From a virus, in the UHGV virus genome UHGV-0096789: DNA of 19,581 nt; one strand, written 5' to 3'. This document shows, in pieces, positions 8,954-14,600 of this stretch; positions within the stretch are counted from its first letter, which is position 1, and every line of letters starts with the position of its first letter. The translations under genes and the position numbers were made by a program. The notes below the pieces were generated by a model, which saw only the letters and a program-made list of their open reading frames with translations, did not search any database and was not told where the DNA came from.

Positions 8954-9484
8954 ATGAAGAAAGATTCATATCCTTATTTGATTTGCATGACTGTTTCAGT
9001 GCTAGGGATTATTTTCCTCTTTTACTGGTGGAGGGCAGATATCTACAGGATTACATATCTTAATTCGCGTATATCCAATTATTACATCTTGTGTAGTATG
9101 GGTATGTCCTTTTTCTTCTCCTTGTTTCTGGTGAAGAGGGGGGGAGTGAAGCAAAGTGGCTGGAAAGGACTGTCGGCATACCTGAAGGTTTATGCTGGCT
9201 CTTGCATTCTTACAGGGATATTCCTGATTATCCCTCTTATGATGGTGACTTATTTTTTACCAGGAGTAACATCATCATATGTTGCACCGTATGAGTATAC
9301 ATCTGGTAGTTCAAGAAGCTGTTCCGGAGCGTTTGTTGATGATCCCGAACTGCATAAAAATATTCTTATTTGCTATCCGTATGGTAACTATGAATATGAC
9401 AATATTATCTATGTTGAAAAGAAAACTAATGCATTGGGCGTTGTTGTGACGTATGCACAGACTGCACGAGACGATGCTGAATAA
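8954..9484 (+). CDS. Small integral membrane protein (3 predicted TM helices plus ~70-aa soluble C-terminal domain), AT-rich cargo gene
   Basis: 176-aa ORF; hydrophobic segments YLICMTVSVLGIIFLFYWW, YYILCSMGMSFFFSLFLV, VYAGSCILTGIFLIIPLMMVTYFL; visibly much lower GC than flanking phage genes; only ORF on the plus strand in the cargo region. Confidence 0.65.
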   Translation: MKKDSYPYLICMTVSVLGIIFLFYWWRADIYRITYLNSRISNYYILCSMGMSFFFSLFLVKRGGVKQSGWKGLSAYLKVYAGSCILTGIFLIIPLMMVTYFLPGVTSSYVAPYEYTSGSSRSCSGAFVDDPELHKNILICYPYGNYEYDNIIYVEKKTNALGVVVTYAQTARDDAE

Positions 9485-9574: not shown

Positions 9575-9958
9575 TTAGTATTTTAGTTGCGCTGTCCTGC
9601 TGTGCAGCAAAGCGGCGTGCTTTAATGCGTCCTGTGCTTTCTGGAATTTAAGTGCATAGTCTGTGGCGATTTTTTCCAGTTCAGCGATTCGGTTGTCTTT
9701 GGTTTCCAGCCAATCAAGTAGCGCCAATACTTCAGGATCCCCGACATCCAACACTGTTACGCGTGATTTTTCATAATGTTCGTCGGCAAGAGTTCGGCCA
9801 ATTTTGAAATCTCCATCATCACCATAACCGGAGCAGGCATAAACAACCTGTGCTCCAGATATTCGCTGAATTGACATTTCCTCGCCGCAAATAGGGCATT
9901 TCGGTACTGGCACAGGTGAATAACGTTCACGTAATGCCTGATAGTTGATCTCGCTCAT
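9575..9958 (-). CDS. Hypothetical protein, 127 aa, N-terminal Cys cluster (CPICG...ACSG, zinc-ribbon-like) and helical C-terminus
   Basis: ORF with AAGGAGAA RBS before ATG 9958; co-oriented directly downstream of parR; moderate GC. Confidence 0.6.
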   Translation of the reverse strand: MSEINYQALRERYSPVPVPKCPICGEEMSIQRISGAQVVYACSGYGDDGDFKIGRTLADEHYEKSRVTVLDVGDPEVLALLDWLETKDNRIAELEKIATDYALKFQKAQDALKHAALLHSRTAQLKY

Positions 9959-9995: not shown

Positions 9996-10013
9996 CAGGG
10001 CGAACTCGCCCTG
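9996..10013 (-). repeat. Perfect 8-bp-stem inverted repeat (CAGGGCGA-AC-TCGCCCTG) between parR and orf127
   Basis: Read directly at 9996-10013; no U-tract on either strand, so more likely an RNA-stability or processing hairpin than a canonical terminator. Confidence 0.5.
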
Positions 10014-10021
10014 ATGTTGTG

Positions 10022-10333
10022 TTATTCAGGAAATAACGCCCGGATATTTCCGGCCATCTGACTGGTTATCTGTGCGGTTGATACTGGCTGTGATGCGGGG
10101 CGTTCTGTCCTGGTTTGTGTCACTGATAACGCTTCATCATCAGCCCATGCAGCTAGTCGGTAAGCCTCTGCCGGATTCATTTTCAGAAGTGCCAGCCCGG
10201 CCAGAAAAGCCACGCGTTGGCCGCTTTTGCGGGCTTCTGGTGTAAGACTGTCCAGCCAGGCACACGCTTCGCTTTCGTTCTTGACTGCGGCTGGCTTCAG
10301 ATAGAAACTTATCCGCTTGGTTGATGTTGTCAT
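10022..10333 (-). CDS. parR: ParR-like partition adaptor / DNA-binding protein
   Basis: 103-aa ORF 4 nt downstream of parM; resembles remembered plasmid R1 ParR (ISFYLKPA vs IAFKLNPD; LDSLTPEARKSGQRVAFLAGLAL vs LDSIPQGERSRLNRAALTAGLAL; C-terminal IRALFPE vs LRSLFPKE). Confidence 0.7.
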   Translation of the reverse strand: MTTSTKRISFYLKPAAVKNESEACAWLDSLTPEARKSGQRVAFLAGLALLKMNPAEAYRLAAWADDEALSVTQTRTERPASQPVSTAQITSQMAGNIRALFPE

Positions 10334-10337
10334 TGGC

Positions 10338-11297
10338 TCACTCCCTGTTCATGTCATGGAGTCCATTAACCAGGGCAAACTGTGGCTCCGGTGTTGTGTG
10401 AATGTTTGCGTTGAGGCCGTAAGCGTCATGTACCGCCGGAGCCACAATCTCCGCCCCACCACCAACAACCATCACCCGACCGTACCCCGAAAAACCCGCC
10501 AGTGCGCGGATCACGCGTTGTTTCAGTGTTTCTTCCTTTTCACGAATAACCGCCATCAGGCTGGCGTAATGCGCGTCATTGTGGATGTGCTGGCGCAGCC
10601 AGGCTTCATCGTGGCGATGTTCGATAATGGTACTGGCGATGTGGTGGCTGGTACGCATACCGTTGGTGGCCATCACCGACAGCACGGCATCGGTCATCAG
10701 TGAAACGCCTACGTGTGGATCGCAAAATACCTGGCTGATACCTGCCAGTTGCCCCTGAACCTTTGCCACATCCAGCGTGGTACCGCCCAAATCCACAATC
10801 AGCAGGGATTCAAACGGACTCATGTCAGCCAGTGCCTTAAAGCCTGCCGGAATGGATTCAGGCATAACCCGCACGTTACGGATAGTGAATGCCTCACCGT
10901 TCTGGTACTCCACCGGGCGCATGACGTTCGCTTTTTTGCGGTTGATGTTGGTCATATCCGGCTGTGCGTTTGTGTCGAAATACTCGCTCAGTGGCAGGGT
11001 GACAACCACATCCACTTCCTGTGGCGTAATACCTGATTTGACCAGCGCATGATGAATGGCAATGACATTCACATCGCTGTACTGGTATTGCGTGTCGGTC
11101 GTCCGGACAAAGCGATCGCTGACCGGATCAAAACCATAGCGCACGCCATCAAGCATGTAGTTCGCGGGCTGCGTGCCACCGAACGGCGCAGACCATTCCG
11201 ACTTGAAGCTGTTCGGGCTGATGGCGTTGCGGCGTTCGCCGTTCTCAGTCCATGCCAGCTTGATGTTGGTGGAGCCGTCGTCGATACAAATTTTCAT
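10338..11297 (-). CDS. parM: ParM/StbA-family actin-like ATPase
   Basis: 319-aa ORF with actin-fold signatures shared with R1 ParM: MKICIDDGSTNIKLAW, ISPNSFK, QYSDVNVIAIHHAL, RKKAN, FTIRNVRVMPESIPAG, LLIVDLGGTTLD, GVSLMT, FSGYGRVMVVGGGAE, LVNG; AAGGAAAAG RBS. Confidence 0.9.
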   Translation of the reverse strand: MKICIDDGSTNIKLAWTENGERRNAISPNSFKSEWSAPFGGTQPANYMLDGVRYGFDPVSDRFVRTTDTQYQYSDVNVIAIHHALVKSGITPQEVDVVVTLPLSEYFDTNAQPDMTNINRKKANVMRPVEYQNGEAFTIRNVRVMPESIPAGFKALADMSPFESLLIVDLGGTTLDVAKVQGQLAGISQVFCDPHVGVSLMTDAVLSVMATNGMRTSHHIASTIIEHRHDEAWLRQHIHNDAHYASLMAVIREKEETLKQRVIRALAGFSGYGRVMVVGGGAEIVAPAVHDAYGLNANIHTTPEPQFALVNGLHDMNRE

Positions 11298-11328
11298 GTC
11301 GCTTTTCCTTATGTTGATTAATTAATCG

Positions 11329-11440
11329 TTTACGGGATTCTGAAATCCCGCTTTTGCCTGTTTTGTGCGCGCTTCATATATCGCGGCGCGTTTTTTGCTC
11401 ATTTACGGGATTTGTGAATCCCGTTTCTGTCTGTTTTTTG
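11329..11440. repeat. Two ~40-bp direct repeats, each a hairpin core (ACGGGATT-N4/5-AATCCCG) plus T-rich tail, spanning the A 3' end and the A-parM spacer
   Basis: R1 TTTACGGGATTCTGAAATCCCGCTTTTGCCTGTTTTGTG (11329-11367) and R2 TTTACGGGATTTGTGAATCCCGTTTCTGTCTGTTTTTTG (11402-11440); R2 lies inside the A reading frame, R1 between the A stop and parM start. Confidence 0.6.
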
Positions 11441-14214
11441 TTTCCACTGGTCAGGCCACCCCGCAGCAGGTCTGCTTTGCGGCGGGCGCGTTCAGTGGTT
11501 TCACTGATTCTCTGTGCGTGCTCTGCGTCGCGGATGGCGCGCAGCATGTCAGAAAGCACGGTAACGGGTGTTTTCATGGTGTTCTGGTCTTGCTGAAGTG
11601 TGGATGCCAGGCGTGCGGCGGCTTCAGGGTCTGATGCCCCCAGCTGTTCCAGATAGCTGGCGACCGGGTTATGGCGGATCTCCGTGCTGCTTACGCCGTG
11701 ATTACGGCTCAGGCGTTGCCAGAGTTGCGTGATTAGGCCGTCCGGGCGGGTATCCGGTTTGCGTACAATTTCAAATCCCTGCGGTGCAATGATGCTGCCG
11801 TCAACGTACAGACTGCCGCCCCGTAACAGGTGCTGCATCTGCTGTTCACCGATATGCAGGCCGAGAGATTCAGCAGACTCCCGCCATTCTTTAGCGAGTA
11901 ACTCGTGGTTATCAGGCAAAGGTCGCGGCTGTTTGCGGCTCTGTGTCCAGTTCTGCATTTCATCGCTGCTGTTTTTTGCCTGTTTGTCACGCAGCGAACG
12001 CATCAGCGCCCGGCGTTCGTGCCGTTTCAGTGAGCGCATCCATTCATTCACTTCAATGCCGTCAGGAATCTGCGGCCACGGTGCTGGCCGTTCTTCCGGC
12101 TGTTCTGTCCCGCTGTTGTCTGTTTCCTGTACACGGGGACAGTTATTGCCACGAGTCCAAGGGGCGGCAGGGCCGCCCTGAAGGTCAAAACCATTTTCGC
12201 GGGAGCTGTCTTCCGCTTCCGGTTTACGTCTTACCAGCTTCCAGTTATCCGGGTGTGTGCACACACGGGAGGATTCCCCGATGAGTGGTGACCAGATCCC
12301 GTAAATCTGTACACTCTGTTCGCCGTAATCGTTCAGCTCATCTGCGAGGTCGTAGGCGGTGCGAATCAGGTAGTCTTTACGTGGAACAAGTACGCCGCCC
12401 TGTTTCTCAATGTAGGTGGCAAAACATCCGGCATCAGCGGCAGCAAGAACCGCATCCATTGCGTCATCCTTCAGCTGTTGTGGGCCTTCCGGGTTGCGTG
12501 CCATCTGGCTGGCAAGGCGGCGCAGTTCACGCCACACCTGACGGGAGGGGATACCAAAGAACTGGAACTGGCGGACCCGGTGAAGGCGCGCCCAGCCGAT
12601 GGCGCGCTCCACGCTCTCGGCCATTGATTTTCCGGTTTCGTGGTCAACGCGTGGCTTGCCCGTTTTCGGGTCGATACCATCCACGGCGCGGCTGTCCAGG
12701 TTCTTTCCGATGTAGGTGGCGATGTAGCTGGTTGGCGTGCCTTTTGAGCCGTCGACGTACTCCGCTTTAAAACGCGGAGTGATGTCATCGCCCAGCTCGT
12801 GGCGGTCTTCCTGAATGGCAATATCGCAGACGTGGGACACGATGGTTTCAATCTCGTCCGGATGTGCAAAGACCATCATATGCCAGTGCACAGTGCCGTC
12901 ATGGTGAGGCTCCACCGTGCGGATGCCATACCAGCGAAGACCGTCGCGGTTCAGTTTTTTGCGGACCGCCGCAAAAAACGTGTTAACCAGGTAATCGCTG
13001 GAGTCGCGCATGGTGGCCCCGTTCCATTTGGGATTCGGATGACCGTTCTCCGTTGTTGCGTGGTATTTTGACGGGCAGGTGACAGTCAGAAACACCGCTC
13101 TGTCGCCACGGGCTTCGGCCAGAAGTTCCAGCCCCTTCATGGTGGCCATCATTTCTGCCTTACGGTGAACCGGGTTACTTACTCCCGCGTAATAAACCGT
13201 CTCGAGATCAATCGTGAACCCGTCTTCATTTTCCAGCATGAAACTTTTCAGGAAATCGCGAGTTTTCTCGCGCTGTGCGCGAAACTCGCTTAACGCGTCC
13301 TGGCTCAGATAGGGTGATGTTTTTCTGGAAACCAGACAGGCGGCGCGGAGTTGTTCTTCTCTCCACTCGCAACGTAACAGCCACAGTTTGCGTTTCCACC
13401 ATTCCGCACAGGTCAGGCGAAGGATTGCGCCTGGCAGCAGCTCCGTGTCCGGTTCGTTCCTCCGATCTCTATCTGTTGTCAGTGCGTCATAATGTGGAGG
13501 CATGGCGTGCAGGTGTAACGCCATGCGGGCCAGCATCTGATACGCCTTCAGCGTTACATCCATGGTCAGCTCGCCATCAGTCGCGCCAAAGCCATCGCAG
13601 AGTTTTTCGAAGGTGCTGCTGAACATCGCCGCCGTCATGGTGGCCAGCGTCTGTATCTGGTGCTTGTTAAGCTGCGGCAGGTACAGCAAATCATCCAGGC
13701 GTTCGCGTCCGGCAAGGGCGCGATAACCCCGTGTCAGCCAGCGGCTGTCGGTGCGGTCCAGACGTTCGAATATTTTGCGCAGGGTTCCGCGCGCGTAGCC
13801 CTCTGCTGGTCGACTCTTTTTGCCTTTCTGGCGGTCAGATTCCTGCTTCTTACGTAAAAAAGAGAGGCGGCGGCTCAGTGGTTCACGCAGATAAACAGGT
13901 AGTGCCTTTAGTGTGACAAATGCACGGGCCACCGGGTCTTGTTCTGTTGCCCGGCGCTTACTGATGATGCTCTGTGCCAGCTTTTCACGCTGTCCGGCTT
14001 CCTCAAGGGATGCCATGAGTTTTTTACCCATGGCGGATTGTGCGAAAAAGGCTTCCTCCTTCGCTTCCTGTTCTTCCCGTGCCTTTTTGTCCGCCTCAAG
14101 GTAGTAACGGATGGCGCGTTGCAGGTCGGTTTCAGTTTCCTGACTGCGCTCCGTAAATCTGGCCGGATCAATGGCTGGCCGTGGTTCATTCCAGCTCCAT
14201 GCAAACTCACTCAT
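11374..14214 (-). CDS. A: Replication initiation endonuclease (gpA-like rolling-circle initiator), with a long C-terminal extension
   Basis: ORF 11374..14241 (track starts at GTG); first ATG at 14214 overlaps the upstream gene stop (ATGA); conserved core FLTVTCPSKYH...YGIRTVEPHHDGTVHWHMMVF matches remembered P2 A; ~946 aa versus ~760 aa for P2 A. Confidence 0.85.
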   Translation of the reverse strand: MSEFAWSWNEPRPAIDPARFTERSQETETDLQRAIRYYLEADKKAREEQEAKEEAFFAQSAMGKKLMASLEEAGQREKLAQSIISKRRATEQDPVARAFVTLKALPVYLREPLSRRLSFLRKKQESDRQKGKKSRPAEGYARGTLRKIFERLDRTDSRWLTRGYRALAGRERLDDLLYLPQLNKHQIQTLATMTAAMFSSTFEKLCDGFGATDGELTMDVTLKAYQMLARMALHLHAMPPHYDALTTDRDRRNEPDTELLPGAILRLTCAEWWKRKLWLLRCEWREEQLRAACLVSRKTSPYLSQDALSEFRAQREKTRDFLKSFMLENEDGFTIDLETVYYAGVSNPVHRKAEMMATMKGLELLAEARGDRAVFLTVTCPSKYHATTENGHPNPKWNGATMRDSSDYLVNTFFAAVRKKLNRDGLRWYGIRTVEPHHDGTVHWHMMVFAHPDEIETIVSHVCDIAIQEDRHELGDDITPRFKAEYVDGSKGTPTSYIATYIGKNLDSRAVDGIDPKTGKPRVDHETGKSMAESVERAIGWARLHRVRQFQFFGIPSRQVWRELRRLASQMARNPEGPQQLKDDAMDAVLAAADAGCFATYIEKQGGVLVPRKDYLIRTAYDLADELNDYGEQSVQIYGIWSPLIGESSRVCTHPDNWKLVRRKPEAEDSSRENGFDLQGGPAAPWTRGNNCPRVQETDNSGTEQPEERPAPWPQIPDGIEVNEWMRSLKRHERRALMRSLRDKQAKNSSDEMQNWTQSRKQPRPLPDNHELLAKEWRESAESLGLHIGEQQMQHLLRGGSLYVDGSIIAPQGFEIVRKPDTRPDGLITQLWQRLSRNHGVSSTEIRHNPVASYLEQLGASDPEAAARLASTLQQDQNTMKTPVTVLSDMLRAIRDAEHAQRISETTERARRKADLLRGGLTSGNKKQTETGFTNPVNEQKTRRDI

Positions 14215-14600
14215 GGCTGGTATCCCGTCACGTGCTGCCACTCCTGCGAGAAGAGGGCGGAAAGGCGGTTAAATTCAGCGGTGTATTCACTCAGCGAGGC
14301 ACACCCGCCAGCAGTGTGATGCGCCAGCATTGCCGCAAATACGGAGGCCGGGGAGTCGTAATACGCCAGCAGTGATTCGCCGTGTGGTGTCAGGCAGTGC
14401 AACGCCAGCCCGTGTGGTGTGAAGTCCACGCGGTAGCAGTCGTCTACTGTGAAATAAAGGGTGTCCGCATTCTCCGGTTTTGTGGTGCGTGTTCTGTTGT
14501 CACGACCACGGATGTAGAGATCAAATAATCCCTGAAGAACGGGAGCCAGACGGGTGTCCTGTGTGCGCACCCATCTTGTGAAGTCATGAGCGTCAATCAT
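14211..14600 (-). CDS. Hypothetical early protein, 129 aa, translationally coupled to A
   Basis: ORF with stop overlapping the A start; AAAGAGAA upstream of ATG 14600; no family recognised. Confidence 0.5.
   Translation of the reverse strand: MIDAHDFTRWVRTQDTRLAPVLQGLFDLYIRGRDNRTRTTKPENADTLYFTVDDCYRVDFTPHGLALHCLTPHGESLLAYYDSPASVFAAMLAHHTAGGCASLSEYTAEFNRLSALFSQEWQHVTGYQP

Follow-up and report, generated by a model that had tools for sequence, protein, structure and literature searches.

The partition site parC of plasmid R1, which belongs to the type II ParMRC class, is said to have been described by Dam and Gerdes in 1994. It comprises two sets of five 11-bp iterons that flank a promoter region of 39 bp, and each iteron binds a single ParR dimer (Hoischen et al. 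2008, PMC2241845). Here we analyze a 19,581-nucleotide stretch of the virus genome UHGV-0096789, referred to throughout as the window, in which two 42-bp blocks mark the junction between the replication gene A and the gene pair parM-parR. The window is part of a P88-like phage (Xuanwuvirus, Peduoviridae, P2-like), and its positions 10000-12000 are 92-95% identical to 14 such records. Our findings suggest that the two blocks probably constitute the cis-acting partition site of a type II ParMRC module, a split parC resembling that of R1 and predicted to be bound by ParR. It would be an unremarkable addition to a known class, with an atypical layout that combines dyad-symmetric sites with the lack of a recognizable promoter. 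ParM and a “partition protein” have already been annotated in P88-like phages, and the literature that we searched contains no description of a P88 parC.

The phage site shares several properties with R1 parC. Both are located directly upstream of parM-parR, both are composed of two repeated blocks with a non-repeated centre, and both are A/C-rich on the sense strand; units of one helical turn, as in R1, may also be present in the phage site. The ParM proteins are clearly homologous and the ParR proteins fall in the same Pfam family, although R1 ParR and phage ParR are only ~27% identical. An R1-like locus, L091, carries two A/C-rich blocks of 49 nt that lie 94 bp apart, and the R1-like leader and the phage parM leader have CA(C/A)CATAAGGA in common. 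The differences concern the units and the centre: R1 contains ten 11-bp direct iterons, whereas the clear signal in the two 42-bp phage blocks is an 18-bp dyad of inverted half-sites, and the 39-bp centre of R1 holds the par promoter, whereas the 31-bp centre of the phage site has no promoter match and drifts neutrally. In addition, the phage site overlaps the end of the upstream gene within the phage operon, unlike that of R1.

The closest plasmid ParM, with ~52% identity, belongs to the IncL/M (pOXA-48-like) plasmids, whose ParR is also of the same Pfam family. Their parC is likewise split, with a 73-bp offset between its two clusters and the same position before parM, but it is built from 10-bp direct repeats (CTGTATTTTT) that are T-rich on the sense strand and in the opposite orientation, its centre contains a good promoter (TTTACA-16-TAATAA), and it has no GGGATT dyad. 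Short direct and inverted sub-sites read by successive dimers are also a property of omega of pSM19035 and ParG/parH of TP228 (PMC5016525); the corresponding order in the phage is AAARCRGG, CGGGATT and inverted AATCCCG. Those systems, however, are of type Ib (ParA-type) and use 7-bp heptads or 4-bp boxes in many more copies, and no homology is implied. Among prophages, the report on AlpA, AlpC and alpS of the Corynebacterium prophage CGP3 describes a comparable combination of a prophage-borne actin-like filament, an adaptor and a DNA site, and offers a precedent for a ParMRC-like machine serving phage DNA and not a plasmid, although its sequences and host are unrelated (PMC5539076).

A repeat search in the window returned two direct repeats of 42 nt each (11326-11367 and 11399-11440), which are 79% identical and start 73 bp apart, together with matching inverted-repeat arms. 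Block 1, the distal copy (11399-11440, minus strand; sense CAAAAAACAGACAGAAACGGGATTCACAAATCCCGTAAATGA), overlaps the final codons of A, falling within the last 22 codons of the gene (stop at 11374), while block 2, the proximal copy (11326-11367, minus strand; sense CACAAAACAGGCAAAAGCGGGATTTCAGAATCCCGTAAACGA), occupies the 76-bp spacer between A and the parM start at 11297. Each block contains one dyad, given here as read on the sense strand: dyad 1 (11406-11423) is CGGGATT-CACA-AATCCCG, with the centres of its half-sites 11 bp apart, and dyad 2 (11333-11350) is CGGGATT-TCAG-AATCCCG, with conserved arms and a variable spacer (TCAG, TAAA, TGAA or TCTG). A degenerate AAARCRGG unit precedes each dyad by 10 bp, which suggests, on the motif pattern, that a block may hold up to four helical-turn units. 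The initial annotation had reported two ~40-bp repeats 73 bp apart, one copy in the 3′ end of A and the other in the 76-bp spacer upstream of parM, and our analysis confirms both the repeats and their placement. The dyad that it described also holds, but with a spacer of four nucleotides in both copies and not of four or five, and the term tandem does not apply, given that Tandem Repeats Finder reported no array and the two copies are dispersed, with 31 bp of unrelated sequence between them.

The dyads are specific to this junction. The exact motif CGGGATT-N4-AATCCCG occurs only in these two copies within the 19.6-kb window, and the core GGGATT-N4-AATCCC, with at most one mismatch, is found twice in the entire 35.8-kb P88 genome, both times at the A-parM junction, compared with 0.09 occurrences expected by chance (0/100 shuffles reached two). 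The central spacer of 31 bp (11368-11398, minus strand) is fixed in length and free in sequence. It holds an imperfect palindrome, CGCGC-N13-GCGCG, around ATATAT; this palindrome (11374-11385 / 11368-11398) spans the stop codon of A, and in Hafnia both of its arms have undergone transitions, with G-T wobbles on the sense strand as the outcome.

The surroundings of the blocks are as expected for a parC: they lie (11326-11440) directly upstream of parM-parR, with the parM start at 11297, they stand next to a cognate actin-like ParM and a ParR with a conserved C-terminal tail, and they are inherited with parMR as one module. A, parM and parR follow one another in this order on the minus strand. 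The first, at 11374-14241, encodes a P2-type rolling-circle replication endonuclease of 955 aa (Pfam Phage_GPA, E = 3.6e-129) and is context for the repeat element, not a part of it, even though its last ~22 codons overlap block 1. The actin-like partition ATPase encoded by parM (10338-11297; Pfam StbA_N, E = 3.9e-82; ParM C-terminal domain, E = 4.8e-65) is R1-like and matches the structure of R1 ParM, 1mwk, with E = 7.6e-92. Its leader (11298-11325, minus strand) has a conserved TTAATTAATCAAC stretch and the ribosome-binding site AAGGA at 11306-11310, and shows the lowest diversity of the junction (pi 0.019). The presumed repeat-binding protein is the 103-aa product of parR (10022-10333), a StbB/ParR-family adaptor (Pfam PF10784, E = 3e-24) whose top solved-structure profile match is the StbB/ParR of pB171, 2jd3, a weak one (E = 0.06). 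Both genes are intact and under strong purifying selection. Beyond parR, on the same strand, lies a gene for an Ead/Ea22-like protein (9575-9958; Pfam E = 6.8e-30); the genes of P88 downstream of parR differ from those of the window, so the par module is followed by variable cargo.

The comparison drew on 81 viral contigs, on copies carried by plasmids, and on contigs of metagenomic or genomic origin that encode ParR relatives down to 57% identity; the tallies of stems and open reading frames (ORFs) are based on 68 unique junction sequences and the diversity values on 65 close relatives, and eight diverged sequences were aligned. Both dyads are present in all 68 unique relatives, and the start-to-start distance of 73 bp is kept in the window, Hafnia, L096, L010 and Salmonella. 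The upstream gene, by contrast, varies. An ORF of 145-155 aa is inserted between A and the repeats in L057 and L096-98, and in these relatives and Hafnia the homology with the window sets in at ~11440 (the left edge of block 1), some 15-20 nt ahead of dyad 1, and runs through parM. In L010, A terminates at a TAA ahead of block 1; in the Hafnia contigs its stop is a TGA in the loop of dyad 1 (GGGATTCATGAATCCC); and in L096 the upstream ORF reads repeat 1 in a different frame. Since the upstream gene varies while the dyads and the 73-bp spacing stay, we assign the repeats to the parM-parR module: judged from these comparisons, they are its left end and travel with parM-parR and not with A. When we looked for A homologues that lack parMR, the C-terminal 256 aa of A gave matches solely in the 14 P88-like phage records, and each of these has parMR.

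Two further observations concern the region upstream. The intervening ORF (L057:2957-3424 and L096:1494-1931) has no Pfam match, and A is shorter in these relatives (about 871 aa). Several relatives, among them phage Chuche with an extra A, have the C-terminus of A shifted into another frame by length variation of the A6/A7 homopolymer ahead of repeat 1 (11431-11443), which may be real or a sequencing error.

The position of the repeats relative to A is also what bears on a role in replication. The initial annotation had proposed, among its options, an origin-related element, which would be recognized by A or by a host replication factor, and there are grounds for such a proposal: the ori of P2 is located inside the 3′ part of gene A (rep_origin, NC_001895), and repeat 1 overlaps the 3′ end of A in the window. 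However, the experimentally mapped P2 nick site at 29892 (NC_001895; GCCGCGCCTCGGAGTCCTGTCAATAACTGT) aligns to GCCGCCCCTTGGACTCGTGGCAATAACTGT in the window, and protein and DNA alignment to the P2 rep_origin places this counterpart at ~12139-12189 on the minus strand, with the nick equivalent at ~12158, inside A and ~750 bp upstream of the repeats. Furthermore, P2 has no similar repeats after A, where orf91 follows directly, and an extra gene stands between A and the repeats in L057 and L096, with the homology block beginning at repeat 1. Because the nick counterpart lies elsewhere and the repeats are uncoupled from A in some relatives, we consider an origin function of the repeats very improbable and disfavour that option; by alignment, ~12139-12189 is likely the origin of the P88-like phage.

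The overlap with A also raises the question of a coding explanation, in which the repeat would be coding sequence and GF(T/Q)NPVN(E/D) would be encoded both by the 3′ end of A and by a 26-aa ORF (11322-11402, minus strand). Both copies are indeed in frame: A ends ...KKQTETGFTNPVNEQKTRRDI and the 26-codon ORF reads MSKKRAAIYEARTKQAKAGFQNPVND, so that ...TGFTNPVNE... in one is matched by ...AGFQNPVND in the other, and the ORF is open in 66/68 unique relatives. Its diversity at codon positions 1, 2 and 3, however, is 0.065, 0.083 and 0.084, with no third-position excess, compared with 0.009, 0.006 and 0.059 in parM; 36 versions of the peptide exist among 68 sequences; its ATG lacks a ribosome-binding site; and the upstream ORF stops before or inside repeat 1, or reads another frame, in L010, Hafnia, L096 and Chuche. 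An in-frame GFxNPVN peptide repeat was rejected on account of the missing third-position excess, the many varied peptides and the differing end of A among relatives, and a coding origin of the repeat is scarcely credible. Because the ends and frames of A and of the ORF differ among relatives and no third-codon-position excess is seen, the element is, on this pattern of variation, best taken as non-coding DNA that upstream ORFs enter by chance. Both the 26-codon ORF across the element and the extension of A into block 1 are incidental.

The distribution of constraint within the element fits a site contacted by a protein. In the comparison of the window with Hafnia, the most diverged relative (ParM 90% identical), the 4-fold degenerate sites of parM are 59% identical, block 1 is 81%, block 2 is 83% and the parM leader is 75% identical, while the 31-bp centre, with 45%, is at or below the neutral level. 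Among the close relatives, diversity in the dyad arms (~0.04) is about half of that at 4-fold sites (0.064-0.073), and the N4 spacers, with 0.10 and 0.21, exceed the 4-fold sites. In block 2, the sequence directly before dyad 2, AAAACAGGCAAAA, is invariant in the eight diverged relatives. The inner GG/CC pairs are invariant in all unique relatives, and the most frequent departures are GGGACT in the left arm of dyad 1 (21/68) and AATCCT in dyad 2 (15/68). None of the 16 stem pairs is changed on both sides; every departure is one-sided, and these changes yield wobbles or mismatches on either strand, so they carry no strand signal. Arms that are kept, a spacer that is free, the lack of compensation and a fixed distance together fit a double-stranded site for a protein, and the same pattern does not fit an RNA or cruciform structure.

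As no compensated stem change occurs among the 68 variants, an RNA hairpin receives no support, and RNA structure on either strand was rejected as a candidate, with one-sided changes only in the unique sequences and no Rfam match in the region. One proposal of this kind is that the dyads act in the sense mRNA as intercistronic stem-loops, which would influence processing or stability of the A-parM transcript or translation of parM. Folding is indeed more stable on the sense strand (-11 kcal/mol; z = -3.5 and -4.7), and one hairpin falls in the spacer between A and parM, where 35 nt separate it from the start codon of parM. Nevertheless, 21/68 variants have an uncompensated C-A mismatch in stem 1, the loops vary, the unpaired A-rich flanks are more conserved than the stems, Rfam provides no match, and two copies at a fixed 73-bp spacing are left unexplained, which makes a function in the mRNA improbable.

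On the opposite strand, the dyads could be read as two plus-strand intrinsic terminators that would halt transcripts running antisense through parR and parM, for example those that continue from the convergent cargo genes, or else a short RNA antisense to the parM ribosome-binding site. The resemblance that the initial annotation had noted is real insofar as T-rich tails are present and both sites match a plus-strand terminator pattern; moreover, the folding energies of the stems are -9.1 and -10.2 kcal/mol, all eight diverged relatives share the T-rich tail of repeat 2 unchanged, and several common stem variants are plus-strand G-U wobbles. The plus strand, however, is antisense to A and parM for kilobases and has no gene end here, and no plus-strand promoter-like site was found in 10000-12500. 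Other common variants give uncompensated plus-strand C-A mismatches, such as AATCCT, and the T-tracts are interrupted. On the sense strand, A-rich runs precede the hairpins and no U-tract follows them. We therefore disfavour terminators, since hairpin and T-tail are combined only antisense to A/parM, no plus-strand gene ends here and the stems are uncompensated, and we regard this function as distinctly unlikely, although a short antisense RNA could conceivably end at repeat 2. The convergent plus-strand genes end near 9484, and a more suitable position for stopping any read-through is that of a hairpin at 9996-10013. This G+C-rich perfect palindrome, CAGGGCGAACTCGCCCTG, immediately follows the parR stop, has a weak T-rich tail on the plus strand only and may be a terminator for convergent transcripts.

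If the dyads are bound by a protein, ParR is the presumed one. Its N-terminal strand RRISFYLKP and its C-terminal NIxxLFPE are conserved across the clade, and by analogy with the ParR proteins of pB171 and pSK41, RRISFYLKP would be the DNA-reading strand of a ribbon-helix-helix fold (PMC5016525). Two allele classes of ParR, ~50% identical, were observed (10022-10333, minus strand, in the window versus L085:3001-3315 and L087:3001-3315). Their N-terminal 24 residues and their final residues (NIxxLFPE) agree, and the stretch in between has been exchanged. With the alternate allele, ParM is 93% and the junction 98% identical, and the repeats are unchanged; a shared reading strand and an unchanged site across alleles are consistent with ParR reading these sites. 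More distant ParR relatives (P0029 and P0031) are on contigs that start inside parM. An AlphaFold2 model of the ParR monomer had a pLDDT of 55 with a disordered N-terminal strand and was not used. The ribbon-helix-helix fold forms only in dimers, and disorder in a monomer model is therefore to be expected.

We propose that ribbon-helix-helix ParR dimers would occupy the half-sites CGGGATT and AATCCCG of each dyad, whose centres are one helical turn (11 bp) apart, and perhaps also the AAARCRGG unit, a degenerate motif that precedes each dyad by 10 bp. The offset of 73 bp, ~7 helical turns, would place both ParR clusters on the same face of the DNA. The bound clusters would then assemble into a ring or helix in which the ParR tails (NIxxLFPE) are offered to the growing end of the ParM filament, as in R1.

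In the transcription of the module, the phage site departs from the definition of parC, which includes a par promoter with autorepression by ParR. We found no sigma-70-like promoter at or between the blocks, nor anywhere in 10000-12500 on either strand, in a scan restricted to consensus promoters that a weak promoter could escape. By eye, weak candidates can be seen in the window (ATGAGC-16-TATATG) and in Hafnia (ATGAAC-17-TATAAG), and Salmonella does not retain them. Given the lack of a visible promoter, we propose that parM-parR are probably transcribed by read-through from the phage early operon via A, and ParR on the blocks would be at most a roadblock. Among the three options of the initial annotation, the parC-like centromere is the best supported, owing to the linkage to parMR, the above-neutral conservation and the split layout, but the promoter expected with it was not detected.

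Several points weigh against a functional ParR-bound parC. The lack of a recognizable promoter leaves the autoregulatory half of the parC definition unsupported, and only two clear sites are present, compared with the ten iterons of R1. We infer ParR binding at the repeats, and as RRISFYLKP is invariant in every ParR member found and never varies within the clade, there is no natural covariation between ParR and its site to exploit. The AAARCRGG motif was derived from the same sequences that it describes, and A-tract phasing is weak (74/2000 shuffles, p about 0.04). The most conserved stretch, AAAACAGGCAAAA, also looks like a plus-strand terminator T-tract. Finally, the location of the element is almost exclusively chromosomal, as detailed below, which gives a working centromere no obvious use.

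Some of these points would also suit a decayed remnant of a plasmid parC without a present function, or a site for another phage or host DNA-binding protein: no promoter is detectable, the sites number only two, nearly all copies of the element are chromosomal, and dyad 1 is imperfect in about a third of the variants. On the other hand, the blocks, unlike the DNA that separates them, are conserved well above the neutral level, the Escherichia, Salmonella and Hafnia relatives all retain strictly the same spacing, and parM and parR have remained intact under strong purifying selection. We give such a remnant or foreign site little more than an outside chance.

A search with the junction element (11298-11470) detected it in 1304/5426 complete E. 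coli genomes (24%), and 1441/1443 of the places where it occurs in E. coli are chromosomal, with the remaining two on plasmids. One full copy is deposited as NZ_CP148288.1 (L190), a 34,461-bp circular “plasmid” of a complete E. coli assembly that consists of an entire P88-like phage with integrase, C/Cox, A, parM, parR and structural genes; this circle could be an episome, or an excised form that entered the assembly. The possibility that P88 is a phage-plasmid has been raised before, and for its family an episomal state is suspected alongside the integrated one (PMC7969092).

A scan of genome contigs for two dyads in succession (GGGAYT-N4-AAWCCC...GGGRTT-N4-AATCCC) returned, among the 80 loci listed out of 90 matched, almost exclusively unrelated palindromic repeat families; two of the listed matches had the P88-like match length and were confirmed by sequence, one in Salmonella and one in a “Vagococcus” contig. 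Desulfobacterales, Poribacteria, Rufibacter/Nibribacter and an Acidimicrobiales genome were the sources of such unrelated families, in which as many as 106 matches fell within 8 kb. The “Vagococcus” contig (NZ_JBQPOM010000071.1, L130), labelled as Vagococcus sp., a Gram-positive bacterium, has a near-identical P88-like A-parM junction, and contamination or mislabelling is likely.

A more speculative interpretation, which we hold to be rather unlikely, is that the element is a stripped-down, promoter-less parC of the dyad type, joined to the end of the replication gene, whose ParMRC system stays silent while the phage is integrated and is switched on with the early lytic operon, where it would position or separate phage genomes, as has been proposed for AlpAC of CGP3 (PMC5539076), or serve a transient plasmid state. 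If this were true, a type II partition system would be in use outside plasmid inheritance.

Taken alone, the element is what one would expect to accompany a gene pair that has been annotated before. If ParR binds the dyads, the result would be a complete cis/trans type II partition set for a prophage family present in 1304/5426 complete E. coli genomes, and it would show that a parC can be made of inverted half-sites and lack an internal promoter. The distribution in E. coli makes the type II partition module a very common passenger of chromosomal prophages, and why an integrating phage found in 24% of the complete genomes keeps an intact ParMRC is a more interesting matter than the site. The two 18-bp dyads provide a small and well-delimited target for studying the role of an actin-like segregation machine in an integrating phage.

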